Shown here one piece after another: positions 1,854-23,572 of a DNA stretch of 64,000 nucleotides (position 1 is the stretch's first letter; every line of letters begins with the position of its first letter). The stretch is taken from the NCBI GenBank assembly GCA_963792265.1, contig CAWBVP010000002.1:101331-165330 (forward strand). Direction: 5' to 3'. Both the position numbers and the translations under genes were made by a program. This DNA comes from an uncultured Gemmatimonadales bacterium (GTDB lineage Bacteria; Gemmatimonadota; Gemmatimonadetes; Gemmatimonadales; GWC2-71-9). The notes below the pieces were generated by a model. That model made no database searches. It was not told where the DNA came from and worked only from the letters and a program-made list of their open reading frames with translations.

Positions 1854-2203
1854 CCAACGCCGAGCACGACCGCCGCATCGATTACATCGAATTCTCAGTC
1901 AAGAGCGTCGCCGAAGCCAAGCAGTTCTATGGTGGCGCCTTCGGCTGGACCTTCGAGGATTACGGACCCGACTACGCCAGCTTTGCCGACGGCCGGCTGG
2001 CGGGAGGTTTCCAGACCGTACCGCAGGTGAAAACTGGCGGACCGCTGGTGGTCATCTATGCGGCCGATCTCGAAGCCATGGAGCGGCGGGTCAAACAAGC
2101 GGGAGGAAAGATCGTCCGCTCCATTTTCAGCTTTCCGGGGGGCCGGCGGTTTCACTTTGCCGACCCCAGCGGCAACGAGCTGGCGGTCTGGTCGGATAAA
2201 TAG
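1850..2203 (+). CDS. VOC/glyoxalase-family protein
   Basis: 117 aa. The pattern IDYIEFSV...FYGGAFGW...GNELAVW is typical of the VOC fold. Its start overlaps the rSAM stop as ATGA. Confidence 0.8.
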   Translation: MTNAEHDRRIDYIEFSVKSVAEAKQFYGGAFGWTFEDYGPDYASFADGRLAGGFQTVPQVKTGGPLVVIYAADLEAMERRVKQAGGKIVRSIFSFPGGRRFHFADPSGNELAVWSDK

Positions 2204-2215
2204 CTGGGAGCCCAT

Positions 2216-3394
2216 ATGCGTTCCGTATTGTTCGTCGATCCACCCGCTTTCTGTACTACCCTCGAGGGTCTGGCGCTGCCTGCGCTCCAGACCCGGCCCG
2301 TGGGGGTCGCTCCGCCCGGTGTCGATCGAGCCACGATTCTGGCGCTGTCCGCCGAGGCCAGGCGGGCCGGCCTGAGTCCAGGAATGTCGGTGCGGAAGGC
2401 TCAGCGGCTCTGTCCCGATCTTATTCTTCTGCCCCCCAACCCTCAGCTGTATGCTCGCGCTTCCCAGGCACTTCTCGAGATCCTGCGCTGCTTCGCTCCT
2501 ACCATCGAGCCCCGGGGATACGGTCATGCATTCCTCGATCTCACCGGAACCGGCCGGCTCTTCGGTTCGCCTCAGGACGTCGCTGCCTGTATCCGGCGGG
2601 AGGTGAGCGAGCGGCTGGGTCTTCCTCTCTCGGTTGGGATCGCCGCGAACAAGCTGGTGAGTGAGGCAGCGATTAAGGCGGGAAGGCGGGAAGGGGAACA
2701 GGAGCTGCTCTATGTCCCAGCAGGGGATGAGCGAGGTTTTCTCGCTCCCCATCCCCTCGAGGTGCTGCCCGAGCTCGATCCCCGTCTGCGCCAAAGGCTG
2801 GACGATTATCAGCTCGATCTCATCGGTGAGGTGGCGGCTATTCCCGAGAACGCGCTCTGCGCTGTTTTCGGCCGGCACGGCCGAGTGCTCCGGGCCCGGG
2901 CGCGAGGGATCGATTCCCGGCCGGTTTTGTCCCCCGAACGGCAATCCGAGTTTCACCAGGTTCATACGCTGACCACCGACACCAATGACGTCGGCGTACT
3001 GCACCCCCTGTTTCGGCTGATGAGCGAGCGACTGGGGCGGCGGCTGCGCCGGCGCGGGCTCACCGCCGGACGACTGCGGCTGCAGGCGATCTATGTCGAT
3101 TACACCGCCACCTCGCGCACCGTTCCCCTGAGTGCCGCCGTTCTCGATGCGGAGCTCTGGGGTGCCGCCCGGCGCGCCTTTGCGCTGGCCAACAGCAAAC
3201 GGTTGGCCGTGCGGACTGTCGCCCTCACCCTGGACCAGTTGTGGGAGGCTGAGGCGCAGCTGGACCTGTGGGCGGGCGAGCGAGACGGACCGGCGGACCG
3301 GCCAACTCCAGCATGCCCTCGACCAGATTCACCGCCGGTGGGGAATGCGGAGCGTCGGGCGGGGGATGGCCCACCTCTCGCTGCGCCAGGCTAA
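2216..3394 (+). CDS. imuB: Y-family DNA polymerase homolog, ImuB-like (catalytic residues lost)
   Basis: DinB-like fold (LPLSVGIAANKLVSEAA). The N-terminal DMD motif is replaced by VDPP, and SIDE is replaced by GYGH (EPRGYGHAFLDL). The C-terminus shifts frame near 3290, giving LQHALDQIHRRWG in ORF 3132-3476. Confidence 0.65.
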   Translation: MRSVLFVDPPAFCTTLEGLALPALQTRPVGVAPPGVDRATILALSAEARRAGLSPGMSVRKAQRLCPDLILLPPNPQLYARASQALLEILRCFAPTIEPRGYGHAFLDLTGTGRLFGSPQDVAACIRREVSERLGLPLSVGIAANKLVSEAAIKAGRREGEQELLYVPAGDERGFLAPHPLEVLPELDPRLRQRLDDYQLDLIGEVAAIPENALCAVFGRHGRVLRARARGIDSRPVLSPERQSEFHQVHTLTTDTNDVGVLHPLFRLMSERLGRRLRRRGLTAGRLRLQAIYVDYTATSRTVPLSAAVLDAELWGAARRAFALANSKRLAVRTVALTLDQLWEAEAQLDLWAGERDGPADRPTPACPRPDSPPVGNAERRAGDGPPLAAPG

Positions 3395-3876
3395 GCCCGC
3401 GAATGCGCCACGGAGTCAGCCCGCTCCCGCCGTGCCGCTCGGCGATCCGTTCTCAGGTATTGCGAGTCCTTCTTGACATCCCATTGCACCTGCTTGAGCT
3501 CCTGCTCCAGCCGGGCGATTTGACGATGCTCGTCGGTAACCTCTCGGTCCAGGCGGGCCAGGCTCGCGTCATCGCTATCCACCGAGCTACTGTCGCCCGG
3601 CAAGATCTGCTCGGCCTGCAGCTTCTTGCGAGTAGCGTCCTGATCGCGCTCGTAGGTAAGGAGCTGGTCCTGCTCCCGCTTGAGCTCACGCCGTTTCCGC
3701 GCCAGCACGCTGTCGTCTTCCTGCAGCGCCGATCTGTCCTGGGCAATTTCCTGACTGTTATTTGCCAAATATCTGCTGGACTGAATGGGTGTCACGTTCT
3801 GCGGGCTCTGGTGACTGCAGCCGGCGACGCAGAGCACCGTCGCAGTGGTAACGATCAGGATCGTTCGGCCAGACAT
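3391..3876 (-). CDS. coiled-coil lipoprotein, hypothetical
   Basis: Lipobox in MSGRTILIVTTATVLCVAGC, a GGAGG RBS, and a charged heptad-like C-terminal region. Confidence 0.5.
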   Translation of the reverse strand: MSGRTILIVTTATVLCVAGCSHQSPQNVTPIQSSRYLANNSQEIAQDRSALQEDDSVLARKRRELKREQDQLLTYERDQDATRKKLQAEQILPGDSSSVDSDDASLARLDREVTDEHRQIARLEQELKQVQWDVKKDSQYLRTDRRAARRERADSVAHSRA

Positions 3877-4039
3877 GGTTCCTCCATCGAGATCCCTTTC
3901 GGGACTCCAGGGCAACCTCTGCGCCATCGGGTATGGAGATGCAAGTAGCTGGAGAATTGGTTGTTGCAGGCAGGCGTCAGGCGGTTTTATCGATCCGGGA
4001 GACAGCCTGGCCGGGACAGCATGTCCAGCGGACAGGATG

Positions 4040-5017
4040 TCACCAGGTCACCACGATCTTCCCGAAGGTCGCATTCCCCTCGAGAACCCGATGCGCGTCG
4101 GCCAGCTGAGTCATCGGGTAGGTTCGTTCCAGCACCGGCCGAAGTGCGGCCCCCTGCTCCCTGGTCTCGAACAGAGGCAGCATGCGCGCTCCGAACTCCC
4201 GAACCAGTGGAATTCGCTCCTCCAGCCCCCGCGTCCGCATCATGGTGCCGACGACCTCGAGTCGCTTCCGCAGAATCGGTCCCAGGTCGGCGTCAGTTTC
4301 GCTCCCCGCCAGGAAGCCGAGCAGGATCAGGCGGCCTCGGGGCGCGAGTACCGCCAGATTGTCGGCCAGAGCCGGTCCACCCAGGACGTCGAGGATCACC
4401 TGGACCGGCTCGCCCACCGCCTCGCGAAAAGGCGTTTGCGTGGTGTCGATCCCGATGTCGAGTCCATAGACCAGGGCCCGGGCCAGCTTGTCCCCGCTGC
4501 GCGAGGTGCCGAGCACGGTGGCGCCCAGCTGCTTGGCAATCTGCGCCGCCGCGGTGCCGACCCCGCTTCCAGCCGCGTGGATCAGCACTCGATCGCCTCG
4601 CTGGAGCCGGCCTCGAGTCACCAACGCATCGTAGGCGGTCAGAAACGCCTCGGGAATCGCCGCTGCTTCGGCGTAGGACAACCCCCGCGGAATGGGCAGC
4701 ACTTCGTCCTGGTGGACCACGACCATCTCCGCCTGAGCCCCGCCTCCGACCAGGCCCATGACCCGGTCGCCCACCTTCCAGCGAGTGACCCCTGGCCGCA
4801 CGGCCTCGACTTCCCCGGCATATTCGAGCCCCGGAATGTTCGCCGGCCAGCCATGCGGTGCCGCATACTGGCCCCGTCGCTGGATGAGGTCGGCCCGGTT
4901 CAGTCCGGCCGCGTGGACCCGCACCCGGATGTGATCTTTGCCGACCTCCGGCTTGGGGACTTCGCCGATGGTGATGACCTCGGGTCCGCCGGCTCCCTCG
5001 TAAATCACCGCGCGCAT
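4040..5017 (-). CDS. qor: NADPH:quinone oxidoreductase (zeta-crystallin/MDR family)
   Basis: MRAVIYEGAGGPEV..., the Rossmann motif AAGSGVGTAAAQIAK, and a C-terminal GKIVVTW. Confidence 0.8.
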   Translation of the reverse strand: MRAVIYEGAGGPEVITIGEVPKPEVGKDHIRVRVHAAGLNRADLIQRRGQYAAPHGWPANIPGLEYAGEVEAVRPGVTRWKVGDRVMGLVGGGAQAEMVVVHQDEVLPIPRGLSYAEAAAIPEAFLTAYDALVTRGRLQRGDRVLIHAAGSGVGTAAAQIAKQLGATVLGTSRSGDKLARALVYGLDIGIDTTQTPFREAVGEPVQVILDVLGGPALADNLAVLAPRGRLILLGFLAGSETDADLGPILRKRLEVVGTMMRTRGLEERIPLVREFGARMLPLFETREQGAALRPVLERTYPMTQLADAHRVLEGNATFGKIVVTW

Positions 5018-5111
5018 GGGGTTCCTATTGGCTGAGTCACGAAACATACTTCGCGGCTTTATTTCATGAGTTCGTGTTATTCAGCTGATTGCTAATAGTC
5101 GATAGTCCGGT

Positions 5112-5665
5112 ATGGCCCAAACCTATTGCGATGTGGCACCGAGTCACCAATGGCATGGGCCGTACCATGATCGGGAGTATGGCTTTCCCCTCGAGAGTGA
5201 TGCGGAGCTGTTCGAGCGGCTCATGCTCGAGATCAACCAGGCCGGGCTCTCCTGGCTCACCATTCTCAAGAAGCGGGAGGCATTTCGCCGGGCCTATGGC
5301 GGCTTCGATCCTGAGGTGGTAGCGGCCTACGGCGCCCGCGACCGCAAGCGGCTGCTGAACGACGCGGGAATCATTCGCAACCGGCTGAAGGTGGATGCCG
5401 CCATTGCCAACGCCAAAACAATTCTGGAGCTCCGGAAAACCCATGGATCGTTCGCCGGCTGGCTGGCCGCTCATCACCCGCGATCGAAGGAGGAGTGGGT
5501 CAAGCTCTTCAAGCAGACCTTCCGCTTCACCGGCGGTGAGATCGTAGGCGAGTTTCTGATGAGCATCGGCTATCTCCCCGGCGCCCATGTCCCCAGCTGC
5601 CCGGTATATCAGACAGTCCTTCGCCGAAACCCGGCCTGGTCGGTTAATCCGGGGAAAAAGCGTGA
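5112..5665 (+). CDS. tag: DNA-3-methyladenine glycosylase I
   Basis: YHDREYGFP, ELFERLMLEINQAGLSW and GGEIVGEFLMSIGY match Tag. There is no in-frame stop before the hydrolase, so the end is approximate. Confidence 0.85.
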
Positions 5666-5705
5666 GCGGGGAATGAAAGGCGTAAGCGGGAGTTGGGTGA
5701 GCGGG
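5660..5705. repeat. GCGTGAGCGGG / GCGTAAGCGGG / GGTGAGCGGG stop-codon-bearing motif cluster
   Basis: Three direct copies of GTRAGCGGG lie at the tag/hydrolase junction. Confidence 0.5.
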
Positions 5706-6464
5706 CCCGTCGGGGCCCTTTGGGTGTCGGACGGCGGACGAGAAGGGCCACCGGTAGTGTTGGTGCACTCACTGGCGGGAAACTCGACCCATTGGGATCG
5801 ACAACTGGAACACCTGCGGCCGAAACACCGGGCCGTCGCGCTCGATCTTCGGGGCCACGGGCAGTCGGAGCCACCCAGGAATGGCGACTACTCGATCGCG
5901 GGAATGGCCGGCGACATTGCGGCGGTGGTGGATACCCTGGGCCTGGATCGGTTCGTGCTGGTGGGTCACAGCATGGGCGGTGGAGTGGCGCTGACCTACG
6001 CCGGCGTTCATCCCGATCGGGTAGCCGGCCTGCTTGCTGGTGGATCCCATCGGCGATGGGAAACAGATCCCGGCCGCCGAGGCTGGAGCCTTTCTCGCCG
6101 GGACTCGAATCGGACTATGCACCACCATGATCCGGCAATACTGGACCGGCATCGCCGGGCCGAATAGTGCCGTTCGGGAGCGGCTGCTCGCCGATCTCGG
6201 CGCGATCCGAAGGAAGCCGTGCTGCAGGTGCTGCGGAGCGTGATGCAGTTCGATCCCGATCCCCTCGCTGGCACGGTACCAGGGGCCCGATGCTGTCGAT
6301 CGTCACCCCGCAGAACGATGCCGGTTCAGCCTGCACCGGCTGGGCCAGCGGATTTCCCCACCGGAGTGGTGACGGGCACCGGCCACTGGATCCAGCTCGA
6401 TCAGCCAGACGAGTTCAATCGATTGATCGATGAGTTTCTTGAAAACAGCGTGAGCGGGACGTAG
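5673..6464 (+). CDS. alpha/beta hydrolase
   Basis: VVLVHSLAGNSTHW, nucleophile elbow GHSMGG, and C-terminal HWIQLDQPDEF. The sequence is spread over ORFs 5112-6167, 6034-6243 and 6219-6464, implying at least 3 frameshifts. Confidence 0.75.
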
Positions 6465-6490
6465 GAAAGCGTTTGTAAGCGGTAAGCGGG
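6448..6490. repeat. GTRAGCGG motif cluster
   Basis: GCGTGAGCGGG and the tandem GTAAGCGGTAAGCGGG lie between the hydrolase stop and the dnaE2 start. Confidence 0.45.
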
Positions 6491-6495
6491 CGTAG

Positions 6496-9400
6496 ATGTT
6501 CACCCACCTCCACGTCCACTCCCATTTCTCCTTCGGTCTCGGGGTCTCCAGTCCCGAGGCGCTCGCGGACGCCGCGGCGCAGCGGGGCTTCCGGGCGCTG
6601 GCCTGCACCGACACCAACGGGGTCTACGGCGCGGTCGAGTTCCAGCGCGCCTGTGCCGCCGCGGGCGTGCGCCCCATCCTCGGCGCGCACCTCGTCGCGA
6701 ACGGCCAGGAGACGGTAGCGCTCGCCACCAACGAGCAGGGTTGGGCAGCGCTGTGCCGTGCCATTACTCGTATTCATTGGGAGAGTAGCGGAGCCCGGAC
6801 GCGTGCCTGAGGGCGCGCAAGGGGTGGAAAGGGGTGTCAGGCGCGACCCGACGAGTATGCCGTCCGCGCTGACATCCTTGGCCACTGATCGTGACGGCCT
6901 CATCCTTATATCTCGCGACATCGTATTCCTGGAAGAGACGCTGCGGCTCAGTGGCCCTGCAAACCTCTACGCCGAGCTGCGGCCCGGGAGAGCGCGCCAC
7001 GCGGTGCTGGCCGCCGCCCGGCGACTCCGCCTTCCCGTCGTCGCCACCAACGGCGTGGTGGCCGCGCGAGCCGAGGAATGGAGCCGCCACCGGCTGCTGC
7101 GCGCCATCGCCCTGAATACCACCCTTTCATCCCTGCCGGCAGAAGAGGTCTGGCCTCCCCAGGCGTGGCTCTGCTCCGGCGACGAGCTGGCCCGCCACTT
7201 TCCCGACTGCCCCGAGGCCATTCGGGCAGCGGAGGAGATCGCTGAACAGTGCAGCTACACCATCCCGGTGGGCCGGCGCACGGTGCCGCCTCGGGTTGCC
7301 GATACCGATTCCGCTTTTGCGCAGCTCCGGGAGATGACACTGCAAGGCGCCCGCTGGCGTTATCCGGTTGTCACCCCAGAGCTGCAGGAGCGGTTGGAGC
7401 TGGAGCTCGGGATCATCGCGCGGAAGGGATTTGCCGACTACTTCCTCGTGGTGCGTGACATCGTCCGCAATGGCCCCACCCACTGCGGCCGGGGGTCAGT
7501 CGCCAATTCGGTGGTGAGTTACTGCCTCGGCATCACCCACGTCGATCCCATTCGCTCCCAGCTCGTGTTCGAGCGCTTTCTCAACCTGGAGCGCAGCGAT
7601 CCGCCCGACATCGATCTCGATTTCCCCTGGGATGAGCGCGACAAAGTGCTGGAGTACGTCTTCCGCCAGTATCCCCGGCTTCATTCCGCCATGGTGGCCA
7701 ACCATAACTGCTTTCAGCCCCGAGGCGCCTTGCGCGAGGTGGCCAAAGTGCACGGCAGGCCGGCCGGCGAGATCCGGGAGGTGACCCGGCGGATTCCCTT
7801 CTTCGAGGATGGCGAGCGGCAGCTCCCCGACCTGATAGCGACTCACCCCAACTTTCAGGGCCTGAGTCTGGCCAATACCTGGCAGGAGTTTGCCCGCCTG
7901 GCCGTGGGTCTGGTCGGGATCCCCACGGCACTTGTCGGTCCATGCCGGCGGAGTCGTGATCACTCCCACCCCGCTCACCGACTATGTGCCGGTGGAGCGG
8001 GCGGCCAAGACCCTCGAGTGCAATCCCGATCTCGCGGTTCCGGTCATCCAATTCGAAAAAGATGGTACCGAAGACGCTGGCCTGGTGAAGATCGATCTCC
8101 TCGGCAATCGCTCGCTGGCGGTGATCCGCGATGCCATCGAGGCGGTCCACGGCCATACCAACTACCGGATCGACTATACCTCGTCTACCGCCGGCGACGA
8201 CGAAGCGGCCAAGGAGCTGTTCCGCACCGGCAAGACCATGGGCGTCTTCTACACCGAATCCCCCGCATCCCGGCTCCTTTGCGCCAAGAGCCGGGCGGAC
8301 ACATTCGAGCTGCTGGTGCTGAACACCAGCATGATCCGTCCCGCCTCGAACAAGTACATCCAGCTTTATCTAGAGCGGTTGCGCAACGGCGCCCCCTATG
8401 AGCCGCTCGATCCGTGTCTCCGCGACACGCTGGAGGAGTCGTTCGGGATCATGGTGTATCAGGAGGACGTGGTGAATGTCTGCGCTACCTTCGCCGGGCA
8501 TGTCGCCCGCCACCGGCGACGGACTCCGCAAGGCGCTCTCCAAGAAGCGGCCCGCCAAGCACCTCGGCGCCTACGCCGAAGAGTTCTTCACCGGAGCCAT
8601 GCGGCTGGGCCGCGATCCGGACGCGGCCAAGCGAGTGTGGGAGATGATCATGTCCTTCGCGGGATACAGCTTCTGCAAGGGACACTCGTGCTCCTACATC
8701 CAGGTGGCCCAGCACGCGTGCGCGCTGCGAGCCCATCACCCGGCGGAGTTCATGGCCGCGGTGCTGTCCAACGGCGGTGGATTCTACCAGCCGTTTGCCT
8801 ATGTGGCCGAGGCCATGCGCATGGGGCTCAGGGTGCTTCCGCCCGACATCAATGCCAGCGATTTCCGCTGCAGCGGGAAGGGACGGGAGATTCGGATCGG
8901 GCTGCAGTATATCAAGGGGCTCTCGGCCGATGGGTAGAGCGGGTGATGACTGCGCGGGTCGTCCTTGCGGAGCGAGGCGGAAGCCGGACCGATTTCAGCA
9001 GCATCTTTGACCTCCGCGCGCGCACCGGAATCGCTCCCGTCCGACCTGCGTCTCCTGATCAAGGTCGGCGCGCTCGATTCGATCGCCCAGGGCTGGACCC
9101 GGCCGATGATGCTGTGGATGGTGGATCGGCGGGGCAGCGGGGCAGCGGGGCCGCGGGCAGCAACAGCACACCAACGCGAGGTCGTCATTCGGAGTCGACC
9201 GCCCCGCTGCCCCGCTGCCCCGCTGCCCCGCTGACTGGTTCGACGACCTTCCGCCCGCCGTCCCGGCTCTCAAGGAATACTCCCCCGAGCGCCGCCGCCG
9301 GGAGGAATACGAGGCCCTCGGGTTCATCAGCGACGCGCACCCGATGCTGCTCCACGCCGACCGGCTGCGACATTTTCGGCTGTGTCCCAGCACCGAGCTG

Positions 9401-9686
9401 CACCAGCACATCGGGCCGCCACGTGCTGGCTGCCGGGATGCTCACCACGGCCAAGCCGGTGCATACCAAGGCAGATGAGCCGATGGAATTTGTGACCTTC
9501 GATGATGGACACGGGTTAATCGAGGCGGTGCTGTTTCCGAAGGTCTATCGTGAGCGGGGTCACGTTCTGTTCGACCAGGGGCCCTTCATCTTCCGAGGCA
9601 AGGTAGAGGAGGAGTTCGGGGCGGTGACGCTCACACTGACCCACCTGGACCGGCTGGAGCGGGCCCGGGTCAGAGCTATCGCAGTG
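6496..9686 (+). CDS. dnaE2: error-prone DNA polymerase III alpha homolog (DnaE2/ImuC)
   Basis: PHP start MFTHLHVHSHFSFG, then GRGSVANSVVSYCLGITHVDP, PDIDLDF, VKIDLLGNRSLAVI, GYSFCKGHSCSYIQVA and an OB-fold tail. Pieces lie in at least 6 frames (6496-6810, 6758-, 7890-, 8476-8937, 8965-9234, 9233-). The stop is approximate. Confidence 0.8.
9127..9232. repeat. palindromic octamer-repeat element inside dnaE2
   Basis: A (CGGGGCAG)n left arm, core AACAGCACACC, and a (CCCCGCTG)n right arm. The arms pair perfectly over at least 20 bp. Confidence 0.8.
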
Positions 9687-10157
9687 AGCCGGCCGAGCGC
9701 TCGAAGACCATGTCGCCTTCCTGGGCAAAGCGGACCTTGCGGGTGCCGATTGGCGTGCGGAACGTGGCCCGGCCCCGGACCGCGAAGTTGTGGGTACCGG
9801 AGCCGAAGAGCCTGGAGATGCTCGGGCGTGGCGTGCTCCTCCAACGCCAAGGCCAGCGCCACCGTCGACACCGTGTCGGTCGCCACCTGCACGGTGCTGT
9901 CGCGCTTGAGACTGCCGATGGGAACCCCATCCAGACGAAGCGACAGCTCGACCTGCTCGGTGGAGAGCGGATAGTCGTTGGAGTTTTTCACCGCGAGGGC
10001 AATGATGACTGGAGTTGCTGACTGGCTGGATGCCTCCAGATTGAGCCGTGATCCCCGCGACCGTGACCACCGGGTCCTCGTACAGCCAGAGGCCGACCGG
10101 AGTACAGGCAGTTACCCAGCACAACCACGCCGCTCGACGCCATCCCGTGACTGCCAT
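9676..10157 (-). CDS. LEA_2/NDR1-HIN1-like lipoprotein
   Basis: Lipobox WLCWVTAC, then WLYEDPVVTVAGI, ALAVKNSNDYPL and FAVRGRATFRTPIG. It is spread over 3 frames. Confidence 0.5.
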
Positions 10158-11370: not shown

Positions 11371-12300
11371 ATGGCAGGGATCAAGGCTGAGCCGTACAGC
11401 CTCGCAGATTTCGAGCGGCTCCGGGATCGCATCCCTCCGTTGATCCGCTTCGGGACCTCGACCTGGAATTATCCTGGCTGGCGTGGCTTGGTGTACCACC
11501 AGGACTATGGTCCCAAGGGGGCGGCGGCGAAGATGCTGAAGGAGTACGCCGCCTTTCCGCTCTTCGGTACCGTGGGGGTCGATTCCAGCTTCTACGGCCC
11601 TCCGACCGAAGCGGTGCTTCGAAGCTATGCCGAGCAGCTCCCGCCGGGCTTCCCCTGCGTGAGCAAGGTGTGGAGTCAGCTCACGGTGCACACCTTTACC
11701 AAGGCCCAGGATCCGGACCGCGCCGGTAAGGTCAACCCGGATTTCCTCAATCCGGATCTGTTCATCGAGGAGATTTACCAGCCGTACCAACGCCACTTCA
11801 GCGCGAACACCGGCCCCTTCGTCTTCGAGTTCCAGACCATCGCCAAGTCCAGCGGCATCGGTCCCCAGCGCTTTGCCGACCGGCTGGACGAGTTCTTATC
11901 TGCGCTGCCCCGCGAAGGGCAGTATGCCGTCGAGATCCGGAACGATGAGTTTCTCACTCCCATGTACTTCGCGGTGCTGCGAGAGCACGGCGTGGGCCAC
12001 GTCTTCAACTCGTGGACCCGGATGCCTCCCATCGGTCATCAGCTCGATCTGCCCGGGTCGATTCCGGCATCATTCATCGTGGCCCGTGCGTTATTGCGGC
12101 CGGGACGCACCTACAATGAGGCGGTGGACGCCTTCGCCCCCTACGACCGGATTCGGGAGCCGAACCCAAAGCTGCGGCGGGATCTGGTTCGGCTGGTGCA
12201 GGCAGCGGTAAATCAGCGGATTCCGGCCTATCTACTGGTCAATAACCGCACGGAGGGCAGCGCGCCGCTGACGATCGCGGCGATCGCCGAAATGCTTTGA
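11371..12300 (+). CDS. DUF72 (UPF0759) family protein
   Basis: Intact 309-aa ORF. FGTSTWNYPGW and VEIRNDEF are typical of DUF72. Confidence 0.8.
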   Translation: MAGIKAEPYSLADFERLRDRIPPLIRFGTSTWNYPGWRGLVYHQDYGPKGAAAKMLKEYAAFPLFGTVGVDSSFYGPPTEAVLRSYAEQLPPGFPCVSKVWSQLTVHTFTKAQDPDRAGKVNPDFLNPDLFIEEIYQPYQRHFSANTGPFVFEFQTIAKSSGIGPQRFADRLDEFLSALPREGQYAVEIRNDEFLTPMYFAVLREHGVGHVFNSWTRMPPIGHQLDLPGSIPASFIVARALLRPGRTYNEAVDAFAPYDRIREPNPKLRRDLVRLVQAAVNQRIPAYLLVNNRTEGSAPLTIAAIAEML

Positions 12301-13184
12301 TCAGTCGTCCTTGTCCGGCAGCCACAGGCTGACGCGACCACTTGCGCTCCTCGCCCGGCTGCAGGGTCTGCGCCGTATGCCAGTCCCGAACCGCGATGTC
12401 GAGGCGATCCGGGCGCTCCGATGCAGGGCTCCAGCGCGAGATTGTAGTAGGGAGGGCGGCCCGGCGGTGCCCAGCCCCGGCAGTTGATCCAGACCCCCAC
12501 CTGGGGGACCTGGTCGGGTGAGACCCCATCTCCAAACGCTCTCCCCGTCGGGGGTCGGTCAGAACCATCCGCCCCTCGCCGGCCAAAATCGCCGAAGAGC
12601 TTCACCGCCCAGCCCCCGCTCTCCGGAAAAGTGAATCGCCCGGCATCTCCTCCGATGGCGCCGGGCCAGCTCACTACATCGTTCTCGCTTAGGTCATCGC
12701 GCCCGTGCACCGCGGCGATCTTCACCTGGGTGACACCCGGAAGCTCCAGCACCGACCCTGGCTGAACGTTGAGCAGCGGGTGGGCCGACCAGATCCAGGG
12801 GAACGGCGTCGCGCCGGTGTGGCGGAGCGCATAGCTGCAGTCGCACGACCGGCTCGTCCGGGTCGAGGGTGACCGTGCGCTGAAACTCGTAGGGGAATAC
12901 GGTACCTTGCGCCGAGCCCGCGAGGGTGGTTCCCGTCTGCAGTCTCGTAGACCGAGCTGTCCCAGGGAGCGCTCCACAACTCGCCATGGTCCGGAAGCAG
13001 TGGTGTCCCCGGCGGCGCTCCGGGAATCGGGACACGCCCCCACGGTAGGAAAGCACTCGTCCCAGCCCCCGCTGTCCGCGGTCTCCACGTATGAGGCCCC
13101 CGGTTTGGGCGGCGCCAGCGGGATCTGGTCGCTGCGCCAGAGCCACTCCCGCCCGTTGAGCCGCCGCAGGTTGGTGAGCTTCAT
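12301..13184 (-). CDS. galactose-mutarotase-like (aldose epimerase superfamily) protein
   Basis: MKLTNLRRLNGREWLW, GGWDECFPTVG and YYNLALEPCIGAP. There are several frame changes. The reconstructed end ...SLWLPDKDD stops at 12301. Confidence 0.4.
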
Positions 13185-13254
13185 CCCGATGGCCGGGACC
13201 GCCACGATTTCAACCTGAGTCGAGCGAAGGGCGACTGCTGGAAAGCCGGAGACG

Positions 13255-13948
13255 TTAGTCTGACGGTAAGGACATGCCCAAAAGCTCGCACCGGCCAGGT
13301 GCCGAAGCCGGCGACTTTGGCCGGCACCGCAAAGAAGCGGAAATCCTGCTGAGGAAGGCTGGCGAGATTGCACATGTGCTCGACGATCGGCACCTCGGCG
13401 CCGAGCAGGGTCGAATGGACCGGGCGGGTCGAGATCCTCGGTGTCGTCGATGTTGAGGGAATCGATGCCGACCAGCGTGACGCCCTGACTCACCAGATAT
13501 TCCGCCGCATCGCCGCTGAGAAACGGATGCCCTGAGAGGTAGCGCTCGGTGCGCCAGTGCGCGTCCCACCCGGTCTGCACCAGCACCGCCTTGCCCCGGA
13601 CCTCCACGTCTTCGAATGCCGACCGGCCGATCGGGCGCCCGGCGCCCGGCGGGATCCGCACCACTACCGCATCGAGATCTGCCAACGATTCCAGCGGAAG
13701 TTGAGCCAGGTCCTTGCCATCGGCATACCGATGGAACGGCGAGTCGATGTAAGTGCCGGTGTTGGCCACCATCTCGATCTTGCCGATCTGGAACTCCACC
13801 CCTGGCGCATACCGGCTCCGGGAGGCCTCCCGACTCAGGTAGTCGCAGATGATCGGGCCGGGAAGACCGGGATACGTGGTCATCCCGTGCTCGACGGTAT
13901 GGCTGAGGTCGACTAAAGCGGCCCGCTGCCCGCCTGCCCCGCTGCCCC
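13255..13948 (-). CDS. cyclase family protein (kynurenine formamidase-like)
   Basis: VDLSHTVEHGMTTYPG, GTYIDSPFH and LVGIDSLNID. The N-terminus is formed by a half palindromic element, and the C-terminal frame is uncertain. Confidence 0.6.
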
Positions 13949-13956
13949 GCCTACCC
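13918..13956. repeat. single arm of the octamer-repeat element
   Basis: The minus strand reads GGGTAGGCGGGGCAGCGGGGCAGGCGGGCAGCGGGCC. It spans the ispH stop and the cyclase 5' end. Confidence 0.55.
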
Positions 13957-15159
13957 AAGCGCCGCCTCCAGATCCACCCCGGCGACGGCACAGATCCGCG
14001 CGATGGTCTCACCCATCTTGTTGTTCGGGGTCGACGCCCCGGCGGTGATCCCGATGACGCTTGAAGACCCCAGCCATCCCTCGGTCACTGACCTCCGATT
14101 TGGTGCCGATCGGCTGGTGCCGGATTGCGCCGGTGGTCGACATCCACCGCTTCGGCATCCTCGATGTGGTAGGCGAGCCACCCCGTGCTGCCGGACCAGC
14201 GCAGCCAGGTGGCAGGTATTGCTGGAGTTGTATCCGCCTACCACGACCATCAGGTCGAGCGGCTCCTGCAGCAATGCGAGCACCGCGTCCTGCCGCTCCT
14301 GGGTTGCGGAGCAGATGGTGTCGAAGGAACGAAAGTGCTGGTCAATGGATTCGGCCCGTACCGCCGGACCATGCTCTTCCGCACCTCCTCAGCGATGGCC
14401 AGCGATTCGCCGGAGAGCATGGTGGTCTGGTTGGCCAGTCCTACCCGGGTCAGGTCCCGCTCGAAATCGAAGCCGGGTGACACCGCCTTGCCGAACCGGG
14501 CTTCCAGCGGAGCGAAGGTCTCCGCCCCGCTCGATGAAGTCGCAGATCATCCGAGCTTCGGTCATGTCGAGCACCACCAGATAGCGGCCGCCCGGATACT
14601 TCATGACCTGGCTGGCCGTGGCCTTGGTCTCTTCGTGGTAATGCTTGCCATGGATGATGGCGGTGAAGCCGTCCCTGGCGTAACTCTCGACCCGCTTCCA
14701 GACGTTCAGCACCGAGCCGCAGGTGGTGTCCACCAGCACGCAGCCGATAGCCCGGAGCCGCTCGAAGTCCCCTATGGTCACCCCAAAGGCCGGCATGATG
14801 ACCACGTCGTCCGGCGTCACCGCGGAAAAGTCGAACTCACCACCATCGCGGTGGTCCAGGAGGGTGATCCCCATGTTGCGGAGCTTCTCGTTGACGTGGG
14901 GATTGTGAATGATCTCGCCCACCAGGAAGAGCCGGCGGCCGGGAAACTTGGTCCGGGTCTCATAGGCGTATTCGACGGCCCGATCCACCCCGTAGCAGAA
15001 GCCGAATTCGCGGGCCAGGCGGAAGGTCAGCCGCCCTACCTGTAGCCGATAATCGTTGGCCTTGAGCGACTCGACGATGCCGCTGTGGTAGTCGGCGCTG
15101 AGCCGGCCGGCGATCTCGCTCTTGAGGCCGAAACCCTTACGGAAGTAGGTGTTCTCCAT
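13951..15159 (-). CDS. ispH: 4-hydroxy-3-methylbut-2-enyl diphosphate reductase
   Basis: FGFCYGVDRAV, VGEIIHNPHV, CGSVLNVW, GLANQTTML, VVGGYNSSNT and GASTPN. At least 3 frameshifts (14389-15159, 14250-14483, 13951-14283). Confidence 0.85.
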
Positions 15160-17240: not shown

Positions 17241-19861
17241 CTACCGACGCGGGCGCCCCCGAGGTCCGCCGCCTCGCCGGGCCCGATGGCCCTGCCGCTG
17301 ACGCCGCCGTCCGCCGCGGTGGCGGCCAGGATCAGAGTCCTCGTCAGCGTGGGTCCGGGGAGACCGCCGCAACATTTCTTGCAGCGCAGGGATGGTATCC
17401 GCCAGGATCGGCGGATGGCGCCCCCGCTGTACCGCAAAACGGAGGGGCCGATCCAGCCGCGGCAGCTCGTCCGCCCGTAGCCGCTTGGCCTGGCCCTCCC
17501 GCAGCCGGACCCGGGCGACGCCCTCTCCGTTCTGGATCTCGTAGTCGAGCGGCACCGCGTCGCCCCGGACATGCAGGCTCCCGGGCAACGCCTGCAGCCG
17601 CTCCCGGTCTTCGACGCCCACCAGCTCCGCCGGGTCGAGCACGATCCGGGTGCGGAGGAACTCATCCCAGCTGCTGACGCCTTCGAGCTGGCGTCGGATC
17701 AGGGCGCGCAATGCGCTCCGGCGCCAGCTCTTTCAGGGTGCCGCCCGACCGGCGCCAGAGCTCATCCAGCTCCGCCAGGGTCCGGCGCAGCCGGTTCTGA
17801 TCGGGATGGATGGTCTCTCCCCTGATGAGCGCCTCGGTGAGCGCATCACGAGCTGCCGGCAGCAGCTCGGCGGGGATCTTTCCCTCGATCGGCTCGATCT
17901 CGGTGTCCAGCTCGAACCCGAAGTAGCTGCGCCGGCGCTCGACCATCAGGGCCTGATGCTTTCGGGGCCCGCCCAAGACGATCCTGAGGTGACCCCAGCG
18001 TGGCATACTTCCGCACCAAATCGTACGACAGAGTGGTTCCCTCGATTGCGGCGCGGGGGACCCCGAAACGATCAGCGAAGTAGCGCAGCGTCCCGGCCAC
18101 CGCACCCCAGCTTCCCGCCACCGAGGTCTTGGAGACTCTCGCCTCCTGACCATCGGCGGTGTGCTCGTCGATCACCAGGTCGAACGGCATGAAGCGGGCG
18201 AGCAGATCGGCCCAGTCCCGCCGCACATCCTTCGAGGCGTAGGGCAGCTGCTTGGGCAAGGGCAGCTCGAGCGACCGGTAGACTGACGCCAAGCCCAGGG
18301 CAGTGTCCTCGATCGCCTTCACCAGGACCCCACGACGCTCGGCCCACTCGGCGAGACCATCCTCGAATAGATGGCGGGGCAAGCCATACACCTCGCCCAG
18401 GTAGCCGTGCTGGTTGACCGCCTCGGCATAGAGATTGTAAGCCGTGAGGTGGTCACTGCCGTTGACGATCACCCCATGGAGGTCGCGCTCCTCCCGGGTC
18501 ATCCGATGGAGCGACTCGATGTTGGAGGAGACGGCAACCATCGGAATCAGCTCTTCGCCCGCATGGACCAGCAGCTCGCCCCAGGGCCGTTCTACCGGAA
18601 GCGCCTCGACCTCTCGTCCATAGCTGGTCAACTTCCCGTTCTCGATCAGGCCTCGGCTGGTGAGCAGTGTGATCGCCCGATTGTAAGCGGTGCGATCGAG
18701 CGGCACCGGAAGGTCCAGATCCCTGGCGTCGACCCCCAGTGCAGCACAGGTGATGGCAACCCGTTCGGCGTCACCCGCCAACTGGAACTCAGGCGGGGTG
18801 GGCCGAAGCGATTCGAACACGAGGTTTCGGTCACTCAGAATGACCACCTCGCCATTGGGCACCCGGCCGTGGACCCGGCCGGCCATCTGGAGAATCTCGT
18901 TGGCACCGAGATACAGCCGGTGCAGCACGTTGCGGCCGCGGTCGACCACATTGCCGTAGCGGGCGTCGTAGATCACAACGGTATTGAGACCTCGAACGTT
19001 GAGCGCCGACTGGCCGGCCGCGGTCATCGCCAACAGGAAGGGACGCTCGACCTCGCCCTCCAGAAAGGGGCGAATCACTCTGATCGGCTCCCCCCGTGAT
19101 AAAACGCCGTCGTGAGCCGGGGCCACTGGGATCCGAGACCCTCGGCCAGCTTTTCGACTTCGGCGCGGGTGGGAACGAAGACCGCGACCCCCCGCTTCTC
19201 CTTCATTAGATGGCGGATATAGCGGTCGTTCAGGAATTCGTCAGGCTGCTGGGGGAGCACCTGCACTTTGGCCTTCAGGGCGGGATCGAAGGCCTGGGTC
19301 ACCAGCACTTCCTTAGCTGTTCAGGTATTGAGCGTAGAACGTCGGATCCACTGTGGCGCTCAGCCAGATGAAGCGGCAGCCCGCCCGCTTGCCCAGCGCA
19401 AGGCAGAGCTCCAGCTCGGCCGAGGTCTGGTGGATCTCGTCGACCACGATGGTGTCCCGTCCGGTGATCAGGTCATCCTGAAACCAGCGACGAGCTATAC
19501 CGGTGGTCACGATCACCACATTCCAGTTGGGAGTTTCCGGGGTGGCCTCCCGCTCGCGATTGACCACTCCGGCGTAGAGCGGCTCCCGCAGAATGGACTC
19601 GGCGATGGATCGGATACCCAGTGTTTTACCGGTGCCGGTTCCCGCCACGATGCCGAAGGCAATTCCCGCTCCGGCCCACTGGCGCAGCTCCTCGCCGTGC
19701 TCCCGCTCGAGCAGGGTATCTACCTGGAGACTGAGAGCCAGCTCGATCGTCTCGCACGCCGCCCGGGTGGGAGCGATGACGATAATCCGGCCCTTGGGAT
19801 GGGGAGCGAGGCGATAGGCGTTGGGATCGGGCGGGAGATGGTGGTCGCGGGAAGGATGCAT
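17241..19861 (-). CDS. DEAH-box (HrpA/HrpB-like) helicase-related protein
   Basis: Walker A GTGTGKT, the DEIH box, and MTAAGQSALNVRG..QMAGRVHG. Pieces are 19313-19861, 19075-19308, 17846-19126, 17662-18153 and 17241-17711. Confidence 0.75.
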
Positions 19862-19872
19862 GCGTAAAGGAA

Positions 19873-19985
19873 GGCGGTAGGGCGGTAGGGCGGTAGGGCG
19901 GCAATTCAGGAACGGCGAATGCAGGGGAACTCACCGCTCTTATTACCAGAACTCTACCGCCTTACCGCCCTACCGCCTTACCGCC
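19873..19985. repeat. intergenic palindromic element with GGCGGTAG octamer arms
   Basis: (GGCGGTAG)x3.5 at 19873-19901 and the complementary (YTACCGCC)x4 at 19954-19985, with a 52-nt AT-richer centre. Confidence 0.75.
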
Positions 19986-19987
19986 TT

Positions 19988-22900
19988 CTAGAACCCCGGT
20001 TGCAGCGAAAACTCCCAGACCCAGTTCCTCCCTGGGCGATCAAAGGGGTGAACCAGATCCACTTCGCCGACGGCGAAGCCGAGCAGGTTTATCCGAAGCG
20101 CCGCGCCGGTGCTGAAGACCGGATCGCGGGTGCCGGAGCCAAGTACTGAAGGTTGGTGCGTGGTATCCCAGGCCAGCCCCCCGTCCCCGAACAGAGCGAA
20201 CTCGATCGGGAAGGCTCCGTAGTATCCCGAGCCCAGTCCCAATACGCCGAGCAGAGGGAATCGAAGCTCGACGTTACCCACGACCATTCGACTCCCCAGC
20301 AGCTGATCGAAGACCGGGCAGGAGTTCGGGTCTTGCCCCGGACCCGGCTGGCACTCCGATGGGTCGAAGGAATTGAAGTCATACCCTCGCACCAAGCCGG
20401 GGTAGCCGAGATAGAGCGGCTGCAGCCGGGGATCTTCACCCCCGTTGCCATAACGGCCGTAGTGCAGCAGCCGGGTGGCGAAGGTGAACGGTCGGGCCGG
20501 CATGATATACCTGCGGTAGTCCGCCAGCACGCCAACGTAGTTCAGCGATCCGATGGTCGGCGACACCTCGAAGCGATAGCGCTGCCCGAAGATCGGGCTG
20601 GTGGCGCCAAAGAATGAGTTGTCGTAGACCAGCGCGGCGCTTCCTATGCCTAGACTCAACGCTCTGCCGGAAGGGAGGTCCTGAGTCTGGTCCAGCAGCT
20701 GGTCCCCCGTCAGCAGCGAAAAGGCCTGGGTCCGAAGCTCGTTGTCGAACGCGATGTTGGTGTAGCCGGCCTGGAACTCGATCCGTTGGACCGTGCTGAA
20801 GGGGTACGCTATCTGTCCGTAGATATCGCGGGCCGTCTGCCGCTGAATAAGCTGCTGGTCGACCAGAGCCGTCTCGCCGTTTACATCGGCCGTGCCTTCA
20901 GCAAATCCGCCGGTGAGGTACGGCGTCTGATCTATGCCCACCTCCCAATTCAGCCGGTGGCTCAGGTTCTGGTAGGCGACCAGGGCATTCACGTCCTTGA
21001 GACTCCCCTGCACGTTCAAACCCGTCACCAGATTGTGATCGCCCAGTATATCGCTGAAGTAGAGCGAGGCGCCGCCACCCACATAGGTCCCGAACTGACT
21101 GCTTCCCACCAGCAGCGATGGCTGGCCCACGTAGGTCAGGGACAGCTTGGGCCTGTAGGGCGCCACCGGGAAATCAGCTTGGGCGGGAAGCCCCGTCTGG
21201 GAATCGTGCAGCAGATCAACCAGCGTTTCGTCCTTGCGGGTCGAGCGGCGGCAGGGTAGCCGCTGCAACCGGGACCGTTCCGTAGGCGCGGTATGCCACC
21301 GTCGGCTCGGCTGGCACCGGCTGCGGCTGGTCAATGGCGTAGAGCTCGTATCCGTTAGCCCGGAAGACGCTGTAGAGCAGGCGGCCCGACCGCTGCGCCA
21401 CCGTCAGCGCGGGGCTGGTCTCGGTGATCCCGCTGACACCGGTGTACAGGTTGGTGAGCCGGAAGAGCTGGCCGCTGGCAAGGTGGAGCTGATAGACGTT
21501 GGTGATGCCGTCGGGATCGGACAGGAAGTAGAGATTGCTCCCGTCGGGTGACCACTGCGGGTTGAGCTGTCGCGCAGTCTCCGGAGCCTGGCACCGGGCT
21601 GACCTGGCCGCTGGCCACATCTATCAGGCCGAGTGATTGGGCCCCGACCTTCAGCGTTGCGAGATCGGTGCTGAATCGGTCGGTGGCAAAGGCGATGCGT
21701 CCGGCCATCGGGCGCCCAGGCCGGCTGCAGGTCCGCGAACGGGTCGTTGGTGAGCTGCCGGAGTTGCTTGGTCTCCAGGTCATAGACGTACAGATCGGTC
21801 AGCCCACCGGAGAGACCGGAGAACGCGATGGAGCGTCCATCGGGCGACCAGCTGGGATTCAGGATCTGGCCCAGCTGGGGAAACGGGATCTCCCGGGTCC
21901 GCTTGCCCCGGGCCACGTCGTACAGGACGAGCACCGGGTGGCCGCCACTGATGGCCGAGAACACGAACTGCTTCCCGTCGGGAGACCAGCTCCCGGCAGA
22001 CTCGATGAACTCCAGGCTCTGCAGGTGGGCATCCACAGCCGTCTTGGTGACCTGACGCTTGATCTTGCCGGTTCTCGCATCAGCCAGAAAGAGATCGATG
22101 GAGAAGAGATCCCGGTCGGACAGGAACATCATCTGGCTGCCATCGGGACTGAGCGACGGCGAAACATTGTAGCGAGTTCCATTGCGCGCACCCACGACCT
22201 GGGGGCCGAACGTATGCCGGCTCCCGGGTCTCGGCTTTCAACGGATCGTAGGTGGCATGAAGCTCGGCATGCCAGCGCGCTACCAGGCATCGGGGGTGAG
22301 CCCCAGAACCTCGCGAATGGCTGGCTCCATGGCCCCGTGCTGCGGCCGGCCGTGGCCAGCAGACGTCCAATCGCCTGATCGCCCCAGTGTCCGGCCACAT
22401 ACGCCAGCAGCGCGTGCCCATACCGGTAGGGGAAGTAGCGAGGGTCGTCGAGCTGCCTGAACGTGGGCAGGCTGTCTTTGGCCGTGTCCTGGATGGCTCC
22501 CCGCATCCACATCGCCGTCGGCGCGTGGATCGGACCCAGCGACATATACTCGGCCATGCCCTCGATGAACCACAGGGGCAGGGCGGTGGCGGCCGGGAGA
22601 CCGCCGAGCTCGCGGAGCGCCCGTCCGGTGATGTCGTACTGGAAGGCGTGGGTCAGCTCGTGGCCGATCACGTGATCGAGGTCGCCGAGGGTGCCGCCAA
22701 TGGGAAGCACGATCCGCCGCCGAAGCGCCTCGGTGACACCGCCGGTTCCCTCGCCGAGGTCGCCGCCGATGGCGTTGGTCTGCTGGAATTCGGTCGGAGC
22801 TGGCGTACAGAATCAGCGGCTGCCGCCCGGAGAGCTCGTGGTTGAACACCGTGCCCAGTCGGGTGCGCCAGCGCTCGCCATCCGCGCGGCGCTGGGCGGC

Positions 22901-23086
22901 CGCGCGCTGCTCACCGGTATAGAAGTAGATGTCGAAGTGCTCGGTCTTGAGCACCTGCAAATCGAAGCTCTGGTACTGAACCTTGTTGCGGCCGAAGTAC
23001 TGGGCGTGAACCGGCGAGGCCGCCAGCGCCAGGGCGAAGAGAACCAGCCAGAGGGTGCGGCGGGAGCCGCATCGCGGGAACGACAT
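19988..23086 (-). CDS. large secreted HExxH peptidase - TolB-type beta-propeller - Omp85-like beta-barrel protein
   Basis: Signal peptide MSFPRCGSRRTLWLVLFALALAASPVHA, the HExxH motif in VIGHELTHAF, repeated SPDG WD40-like blades, and a barrel ending ...WEFSLQPGF. There are at least 5 frameshifts. Confidence 0.65.
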
Positions 23087-23572
23087 ACAGCCTCCTGGGC
23101 GACAATGCCTCCGTCGATCGGCTCTTGCGGTGAGCCGCAGCACATGCTGAGAACCCCGAAGCTCACCGACTGTCAGCTTGGTAAGTCGCGCTTCGCAACG
23201 ACGGCGAACCGAAGCGCAATCTGCTCCGCTCGCCCAGTGCGAAGCCTGTGCCAGTAAGCTAAGACGTTGTAGTGCGGAGAAAAACAGACCGATCGGTCAG
23301 ATGTCCGGCGGCGGTGGCCAGCTTGTCCGGCCTGGCGCGGCGCGTCCGATGCACAGCGGCTGTTGCTGGATGGAACGGGCTGCATCGGACGGTCTGATCT
23401 TGATGATCCAGCCATTCACAGACCACTGCAAACGCGGTGTCCGATCCAGACCGAACGCACTCATCAAATACGGCACCGCGCCGTACATGTTGGTCCGACC
23501 TCGGCTTTGAGCCTTCGAAGGAAGCGGAAGAATACAGGCTGCACTGATCGGGGTCGAGCTGCCATAGACCCG

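Follow-up and report, generated by a model that had tools for sequence, protein, structure and literature searches.

Octamer hairpin at an Omp85-like/helicase gene boundary in a Gemmatimonadales bacterium and its likeness to the intervening sequences of 23S rRNA

Overview

The stretch of 64,000 nucleotides analysed here (the window) belongs to an uncultured Gemmatimonadales bacterium and contains, at positions 19870-19988, a hairpin with tandem octamer arms that fills the whole spacer of a conserved, co-oriented pair of genes, an Omp85-like gene followed by a helicase gene. Our preferred interpretation, held at about even confidence, is that this hairpin is a copy devoid of an open reading frame (ORF) of a Gemmatimonadota-wide family that has the architecture of the intervening sequences (IVSs) of rRNA, arms composed of GGCGGTA plus one variable base, and a location between protein genes. 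Longer members of this family carry in their loop a gene for a TIGR02436/PF05635 protein ('S23p', the 23S rRNA intervening-sequence protein). The observations that bear on this interpretation are the anatomy and strong fold of the hairpin, the membership of its arms in a widespread repeat family, the occupancy of the same site in relatives, including a gene-bearing copy and an empty site, and the arrays that abut or supply stop codons.

Structure of the hairpin

A repeat finder pairs positions 19870-19901 with 19957-19988 as inverted arms of 32 nt that are 94% complementary and separated by 55 nt, and Tandem Repeats Finder resolves these arms into octamers, namely GGCGGTAG at 19873-19901 (period 8, 3.6 copies, 100% matches) and TACCGCCT at 19955-19987 (period 8, 4.1 copies, 92% matches), the right arm having the consensus (YTACCGCC)x4. 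The first-pass annotation had placed at 19873-19985, between the helicase start and the Omp85 stop, a palindrome with octamer arms and an AT-richer centre of 52 nt. This anatomy is confirmed by the repeat finders and by base composition (50% GC in the 52-nt centre between the octamer runs, 74% in the arms), whereas the limits have to be moved outwards by 3 nt on each side (GAAGG...CCTTC), so that the palindrome overlaps the stop codon by one base. The components of the locus are as follows, L-numbers here and below being labels of the database loci and contigs that were compared with the window.

19859..19861, minus strand: ATG of the DEAD/Helicase_C gene, whose N-terminus MHPSRDHHLPPDP is kept in L001, L002, L122 and L123
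19870..19901, plus-strand view: left arm, GAA + (GGCGGTAG)x3.6
19902..19956: centre or loop, 52-55 nt, 50% GC, no ORF, with a predicted inner stem of 10-11 bp
19957..19988, plus-strand view: right arm, (CTACCGCC/TTACCGCC)x4 + TTC
19988..19990, minus strand: TAG stop of the Omp85/BamA-like C-terminal ORF (19988-21334), overlapped by the palindrome

On the minus strand, which is the sense of the mRNA, the right arm becomes the 5' arm AAGGCGGTAAGGCGGTAGGGCGGTAAGGCGGTAG, which begins directly past the Omp85-like stop and contains TAA or TAG in all three frames, and the left arm becomes the 3' arm (CCCTACCG)n, which ends 9 nt ahead of the helicase ATG. Taken together, the boundaries of the palindrome and the gene ends leave the spacer filled from the Omp85-like stop to 9 nt before the helicase start. 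Since the unit is 8 nt long, any three units put a stop codon in every frame of the G-rich strand while leaving the C-rich strand free of stops, and an inverted pair of such arrays therefore stops translation from either side; the earlier remark that the arm unit carries TAG or TAA is thus borne out.

The predicted RNA fold of the mRNA-sense strand has an energy of -83.8 kcal/mol, compared to -47.3 +/- 4.2 kcal/mol in 200 shuffled sequences, none of which folds as well (z-score -8.7), and the plus strand reaches -79.8 kcal/mol (z -8.9). Moreover, all six matches to GGCGGTAGGGCGG found in the 64-kb window with at most one mismatch are located within the hairpin. The hairpin is, therefore, confirmed as real and as more than a product of chance.

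Occupancy of the orthologous spacer

The same spacer is occupied in relatives in several ways. In L001, whose flanks are about 93% identical, it holds the same arms (GGCGGTAA/G) and folds with -83.3 kcal/mol (z -10.4); compared with the window, the arms are conserved and show one compensatory G-C to A-T change, while the centre can be aligned at only about 60%, with insertions and deletions. L002 has the same right arm, a degenerate left arm and a loop of about 440-446 nt that encodes a TIGR02436 'four helix bundle protein' (E-value 3e-22), the reading frame being broken by a frameshift. The hairpins of L003 and L122, which abut the stop codon, have heptamer arms of unrelated sequence, GGAGCTA and GAGCTAT, with folds of -102.5 kcal/mol in L003 (z -6.6) and -40.4 kcal/mol in L122 (z -3.9). 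L123, finally, has an empty spacer of 37 nt without structure (z +1.1). Thus, a hairpin is present in four other genomes and missing from one, which makes it a recurrent but not universal feature of this spacer, built from at least three different repeat units.

A further Omp85-like gene, with a different downstream neighbour, is found in L124, where a hairpin (5130-5205) still follows the stop codon; its arms consist of TTAGGGG/CTAGGGG-like units that resemble telomere repeats.

Distribution of the GGCGGTAR repeat

Scanning one genome per GTDB species with GGCGGTARGGCGGTARGGCGG yielded at least 118 loci, 80 of which were listed, and the counts of arrays below refer to the loci recovered. Nearly all of the listed loci (74 of 80) belong to Gemmatimonadota or Gemmatimonadales metagenome-assembled genomes (MAGs), often with several loci per MAG. 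Among the matches are 40 inverted pairs, whose centres measure 16-980 nt, along with about 115 arrays that have no partner; arrays most often have four units and at most 14, and the eighth base of the unit is G or A in 82% of units.

The position of the arrays relative to genes was determined by assigning the flanking frames with a call based on GC content at third codon positions, which gave 142 arrays with usable flanks. Almost half of these (69 of 142) come after a gene in the same orientation that has its stop between -30 and +21 relative to the array start, and in 32 of the 69 the stop codon is itself the TAR of unit 1, 2 or 3, while another 38 arrays face the 5' end of a divergent gene. 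Overall, genes are far more often found directly at the 5' side of the G-rich strand than at its 3' side. The location of such arrays at gene boundaries, as noticed in the window, is thus seen in at least 118 related loci.

On the C-rich strand the unit (CTACCGCC) is free of stop codons, and single GGCGGTAR arrays in this orientation sit in frame within genuine ORFs. Two of them, in L092 (near 3600, minus strand) and L117 (2630), form the juxtamembrane linker of a Ser/Thr kinase-transmembrane-PD40 protein in two MAGs, and another, in L049 (3852, minus strand), forms a loop of a MeaB-like GTPase; all are translated as ...PTALPPYR(L/P)TA.... No paired GGCGGTAR element was seen inside an ORF.

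An all-against-all comparison of 42 centres revealed no likeness beyond the four-helix-bundle gene and a small number of short modules, and the centre of the window hairpin had no match among the 264 loci and the window. A palindromic module of a second kind, GTCATCC(C/T)GAGCGA...TCGCTC.GGATGAC, recurs in the centres of several array-armed hairpins (L003 11595-11700; L061 ~560-760; L059 ~2650-2720; L034 ~3880-3920), and modules of about 30 nt are common to the centres of L050, L061, L087, L032 and L086. An unpaired array often has an array of a different unit behind it; such composite arrays of arrays are found in L009 (3278-3450), L034 (3733-3860) and L100 (3900-4147), where up to 14 GGCGGTAR units run directly into CTCGCTGCC x10, GGGCGGAC xn or GAGCCGCC x11. 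The window itself has a single C-rich octamer array without inverted partner at 13921-13956 (GCCCGCTG / CCCGCCTG / CCCCGCTG / CCCCGCCT), at the border of an ORF on the minus strand (12228-14012) and one on the plus strand (14003-14584).

Association with four-helix-bundle genes

A search by tblastn with the L002 protein located four-helix-bundle genes between or beside the GGCGGTAR arms of L058, L084, L068, L014, L120 (a fragment), L090 and L005, loci that had been chosen by arm sequence only. The converse test gave a concordant result: all three of the four-helix-bundle genes chosen by protein similarity only are bracketed by inverted arrays that have the GGCGGT core and repeat every 8 nt in L125/L126, every 9 nt in L127 and about every 20 nt in L128-L134. 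A PF05635/TIGR02436 ORF is found in the loop at the orthologous site of L002 and in L058, L084, L068, L014, L125 and L127, and the genes around which the GGCGGTA core recurs are only 55-70% identical. These full-length relatives, with an array stem and a four-helix-bundle gene in the loop, therefore have the anatomy of an rRNA IVS, placed between protein genes. As a separate observation, the left arm, which lies upstream of the four-helix-bundle gene, is longer by one unit of about 21 nt in one of the otherwise near-identical contigs L131 and L128, which come from different samples, and the other arm shows no matching change.

The association extends to other phyla. On cyanobacterial plasmids, heptamer arrays are present on both sides of eight out of ten four-helix-bundle genes, and in several copies the TGA stop codon lies within the right arm. 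The closest solved structure is that of Xanthomonas campestris XCC0516 (PDB 2GSC, E-value 3e-23), whose start codon is overlapped by a four-unit GGGAATC array (array #15 in the supplementary table of Rehm et al. 2015, PMC4692102). In the 23S rRNA IVS of Coxiella, the S23p ORF is accompanied by a 28-bp terminal stem with two to three tandem GACAGAT heptamers, and the element is excised by ribonuclease III (RNase III) (PMC4990558). In the literature searched, no description was found of four-helix-bundle genes associated with such arrays outside rRNA.

A plasmid of Pseudanabaena galeata (pPg_01, L257, record 45868-46961) contains a four-helix-bundle gene between cas6 and cas4, with about 15 AAAGCTA heptamers ahead of it and a long AAAGCCA array behind it; PF05635 has been listed among the genes linked to CRISPR (PMC10910872).

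A broader reading, possible if on balance doubtful, is that the PF05635 (S23p/IVS-protein) genes and the dispersed arrays of 7-9 nt, i.e., GGCGGTAR in Gemmatimonadota, heptamers like the short tandemly repeated repetitive (STRR) sequences in cyanobacteria, and GGGAATC in Xanthomonas, are two halves of one system. The gene would then always reside in an array-stemmed hairpin, the 23S rRNA IVS would be the special case that landed in rRNA, and the hairpins without gene and solo arrays, which are far more numerous and include the hairpin at 19870-19988, would be relics left by the spread of the gene or sites at which the pentameric protein acts in trans.

Assessment of the preferred interpretation and possible mechanism

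Several observations weigh against the interpretation of the hairpin as an ORF-less member of an IVS-like family. Firstly, no four-helix-bundle match is found in the 64-kb window by tblastn, the window copy having no ORF, and no rRNA signature is found in any locus, so that no true rRNA IVS with GGCGGTAR arms was seen. Secondly, the centres of the window hairpin and L001, when locally aligned with the 446-nt loop of L002, scored no better than shuffled sequences, 67 of 500 of which did as well as the window centre; this centre thus lacks significant similarity to the L002 element and descent from a gene-bearing copy is unproven. The gene may have been lost from a full element to give the short copy, or it may have entered a pre-existing hairpin. 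Thirdly, many arrays lack a partner or have one that is built from an unrelated unit, arms can gain units independently and without compensation on the other arm (L131 compared to L128), and complementarity between the variable eighth bases of the two arms does not exceed chance (52 of 90, against 48.6 +/- 2.7 after shuffling, in 28 pairs). Finally, the mRNA-sense stem has two A-C mismatches at positions where the opposite strand has G-U, which indicates that the GGCGGTA motif, and not perfect pairing, is what is maintained. Such a pattern would be compatible with a protein that recognises the motif or with a generating mechanism by which the motif is copied.

If the hairpin acts in the manner of IVS stems, a mechanism can be outlined. 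The Omp85-like and helicase genes may be co-transcribed, in which case a stem of about 33 bp would form in the mRNA, and its G-rich 5' arm would be expected to stop any ribosome in any frame. RNase III, which cuts long perfect RNA duplexes including IVS stems (PMC4990558), would by analogy probably also cut this stem. A cut stem, or at least blocked access of ribosomes, 9 nt from the helicase ATG would uncouple the stability and translation of the two cistrons.

Relation to known repeat systems

The hairpin resembles most directly the S23p-type IVSs in the 23S rRNA of Leptospira, Coxiella, Brucella and Haemophilus (PMC4990558), with which it shares terminal inverted repeats that form a stem of about 28-33 bp and tandem repeats of 7-8 nt in this stem whose number varies between strains. 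In addition, full-length relatives have a PF05635/TIGR02436 gene in the loop, often in decay, as in the frameshifted copy of L002; the S23p ORF of Coxiella is likewise considered to be under reductive evolution (PMC4990558). Unlike an IVS, the hairpin is located between an Omp85-like and a helicase gene and not in helix 25 or 45 of 23S rRNA, the window copy has no ORF, and its octamer arms have an invariant GGCGGTA core that is found at more than 118 loci. Cleavage by RNase III is established for IVSs (PMC4990558) and may, by analogy, be expected for the hairpin at 19870-19988.

A second likeness is to the GGGNATC arrays of Xanthomonas and Nostoc, short-unit arrays at gene ends that prefer four units and form G-quadruplexes (G4) (PMC4692102). 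Both systems consist of tandem units of 6-9 nt with about four copies (period 8, 3.6 and 4.1 copies in the hairpin), and in both the G-rich sense strand lies within a few bases of a stop codon or overlaps it, while the C-rich strand lies just upstream of starts. Both are found between co-oriented ORFs, often as convergent, i.e., inverted, pairs, of which each Xanthomonas genome has 70-75 (Rehm et al. 2015, PMC4692102), and the single or paired type is kept between related genomes. The hairpin differs by its octamer unit with an embedded stop codon, its weak G4 potential and its occurrence in a different phylum. The GGGNATC study makes no mention of a link to four-helix-bundle genes, yet array #15 of its table sits on the start codon of XCC0516 (PMC4692102).

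The TAACTGA arrays of Beggiatoaceae, cyanobacteria and Bacteroidetes (MacGregor 2015, PMC4679880) provide a third comparison, since their unit length is not a multiple of three, they have stops in each of the three frames in one orientation and none in the other, they overlap gene ends, they immediately precede start codons without Shine-Dalgarno sequence, and they occur occasionally in ORFs in reverse orientation. However, these arrays are AT-rich and nearly always direct (of 170 sets in the BOGUAY genome, one is an indirect repeat; PMC4679880), whereas inverted pairs with a long stem are common in the family described here. Overall, the hairpin is an octamer, stop-bearing Gemmatimonadota variant of the IVS, GGGNATC and TAACTGA systems.

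Among other dispersed repeats, Rickettsia palindromic elements (RPE) and Correia, ERIC and REP/BIME elements are palindromes of about 100-150 nt that are intergenic or, in the case of RPE, in frame in ORFs. They can be targets of RNase III or RNase E and modulate operon mRNA, and each family has conserved arms and interiors of unique sequence. The GGCGGTAR hairpins differ from these and other families similar to MITEs (miniature transposable elements with inverted repeats), since they have in common only the tandem octamer motif, their interior is not conserved and no target-site duplication is visible, and we know of no transposase partner for them. The STRR heptamers of cyanobacteria, reportedly described by Mazel et al. 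in 1990, invite comparison with the GGCGGTAR family in the same respects as the TAACTGA arrays.

Other classifications were considered and rejected. A MITE would be expected to leave a target-site duplication, which is missing at the junctions GTAAAG/GAAGG and CCTTC/TAGAAC; moreover, the empty site of L123 is not a clean excision or insertion junction, the centre is unique, and the only recurrent cargo is the four-helix-bundle gene, which is not a known transposase. Repetitive extragenic palindromes (REP) are imperfectly palindromic units of 20-40 nt that have a GTAG head and flank a gene for a RAYT (Y1) transposase; GTAG is present in every unit of the hairpin, but the unit is a non-palindromic octamer. 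A CRISPR-like array does not agree with a head-to-tail period of 8 nt without spacers. Finally, no Rfam family reaches the gathering threshold across the whole window.

Alternative explanations

The arrays could be local simple-sequence expansions of short units (7-9 nt), generated at gene ends by replication slippage, as has been described for GGGNATC in Xanthomonas and Nostoc. Any effect that they have would be exerted through non-B DNA (G-quadruplex or i-motif), the hairpin and the gene being incidental. Such an origin, which we regard as unlikely, is in agreement with the modal number of four units, as in the G4-forming GGGNATC arrays (PMC4692102), the polymorphism of unit number between strains in one arm only, array lengths that reach 14 units, the adjacency of arrays with unrelated units, the lack of significant covariation at position 8, and the presence of different units in the same spacer of different genomes. 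However, one GGCGGTA core recurs at more than 118 loci in many species, and also flanks four-helix-bundle genes with an identity of only 55-70%, which independent slippage does not predict. As for non-B DNA, the GGG runs of the hairpin number three on the plus strand and one on the mRNA-sense strand, the remainder being GG, so that a three-tetrad G4 is not possible on the latter, and a complement of 33 bp in cis would out-compete a G4.

Alternatively, the tandem GGCGGTA motifs may be putative DNA or RNA sites of a trans-acting factor, most plausibly the pentameric four-helix-bundle protein, and the window would then contain one operator or other regulatory site within a dispersed regulon. In favour of this, the motif shows much stronger conservation than does pairing at the variable position, its core is kept around different four-helix-bundle genes while the period varies (8, 9 or about 20 nt), the own gene of this protein is bracketed by the same motifs, and the association of the gene family with arrays is observed across phyla; a post-transcriptional regulator has, in addition, been proposed for the TAACTGA arrays (MacGregor, PMC4679880). 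We nevertheless consider this distinctly unlikely, as the arm units are wholly different between phyla and even at the orthologous site, S23p is not detectably expressed in Coxiella (PMC4990558), and the 64-kb window has no four-helix-bundle gene.

Quite improbable, too, is the model derived from the first-pass annotation, in which the hairpin is the sister of G-rich palindromes embedded in coding sequences, both being sub-families of one mobile palindromic element whose stop-bearing arms were purged from ORFs and confined to intergenic DNA while stop-free arms were tolerated. The window contains three G-rich octamer-armed palindromes with GCGGGGCA-type arms, at ~679-805, at 975-1085 within a radical-SAM gene and at 9126-9234 within a DnaE2-like gene, and the centres of all three start with GGGC(A/G)G(C/T)AACAGCA(A/C)ACC, which corresponds to the conserved motif GGGCAGCAACAGCACACC. 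When metagenomes were scanned for this centre motif, nine true members with arms of the same type were recovered.

Part of the model stands. The architecture is common to both kinds of element (8-nt units, three to four per arm, a centre of about 50 nt and a total of about 110 nt), and the tolerance of stop-free elements inside ORFs is verified by G-rich copies that lie in frame in orthologous genes of other genomes: the orthologous radical-SAM gene of L233 reads through as ...THRWTME-RRGSGAAGQTGSNSTPEEITASEQTAPPSRRPAALP-AWEAFEREILVKE..., the DnaE2 ortholog of L152 also reads through the element, and more in-frame cases are found in L169 (sugar kinase), L225 (DnaE2 PHP domain) and L220/L141 (Y-family polymerase partner). 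In L136/L182 a G-rich element lies upstream of a start codon. The absence of paired GGCGGTAR elements from ORFs also fits the model.

The proposed common descent and strict segregation, however, do not hold. Arms and centres show no sequence similarity: GGGCAGCAACAGCACACC is found neither in the hairpin, whose own centre is unique, nor in any of the 124 arm-family loci compared, and no four-helix-bundle gene lies near any of the nine G-rich copies, a link that belongs to the GGCGGTAR type only. The confinement of stop-bearing arms to intergenic DNA was too strong a statement, given the single antisense GGCGGTAR arrays in frame in L092, L117 and L049. Unrelated centres and lengths had been set beforehand as the outcome that would count against the idea, and the centres are indeed unrelated, those of the GGCGGTAR elements being heterogeneous (16-980 nt); by its own standard the two-sub-family idea therefore fails. 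The coding-embedded G-rich family is real, but it shares with the hairpin only the general architecture and not the arms, centre or cargo.

At least three of the G-rich palindromes are hosted by a mutasome-type cassette of radical-SAM, Y-family-polymerase-like and DnaE2-like genes (window ~800-10000), and the metagenome matches to the G-rich centre motif are mostly in orthologs of these cassette genes.

A role of the hairpin as an intrinsic (Rho-independent) terminator of the Omp85-like gene, as had been suggested, or as a simple 3' stabiliser of its mRNA is highly improbable: a very stable GC-rich stem does stand immediately past the stop codon, also after the orthologous gene of the non-syntenic L124, but no U-tract follows the stem, whose tail is CCUUCCUUUACGC, a terminator scan found 0 sites in 19500-20400, tails differ among orthologs, a sequence scan detected neither a Shine-Dalgarno sequence nor a sigma-70-like promoter between the arm and the ATG of the helicase gene, which in L123 lies 37 nt from the upstream stop, unpaired arrays cannot terminate, and in L127 a separate canonical terminator follows the arms.

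Flanking genes and sequence quality

The minus-strand ORF 19988-21334 matches Pfam Omp85 (E-value 1.5e-10), and the great majority of homologs of the Omp85-like protein belong to Gemmatimonadales, with 89% identity for the best. The minus-strand ORF 19313-19861 matches a DEAD helicase, whose start at 19861 is confirmed by the orthologous N-terminus MHPSRDHH in L001, L002 and L123.

Many genes of the window are broken into consecutive ORFs in different frames (17846-23143, around 9400 and elsewhere). The helicase is in two pieces (19313-19861 and 17846-19126), the PD40/Omp85 protein is in three, and the DnaE2-like gene shifts frame near 9400. Since the DnaE2 region is intact and free of frameshift in an independent metagenome contig (L152), and since comparable splitting is found in related long-read MAG contigs, the frameshifts of the window are probably indels of long-read assembly rather than marks of pseudogenes.

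Conclusions

The function and origin of the IVS/S23p genes and the heptamer or octamer arrays at bacterial gene boundaries are two puzzles that have so far been treated separately. The locus described here and its relatives show arrays and four-helix-bundle genes together, at orthologous sites and across three phyla. At a practical level, the arrays provide the stop codons of many genes, fragment short-read assemblies and draw indel errors in long-read ones and, thus, affect gene calling in Gemmatimonadota MAGs. Moreover, two questions become testable, i.e., whether the protein binds the motif that flanks its gene and whether the stems are RNase III sites that punctuate operons. It is this general association of four-helix-bundle genes with arrays, rather than the single hairpin, that is the part worth following up.

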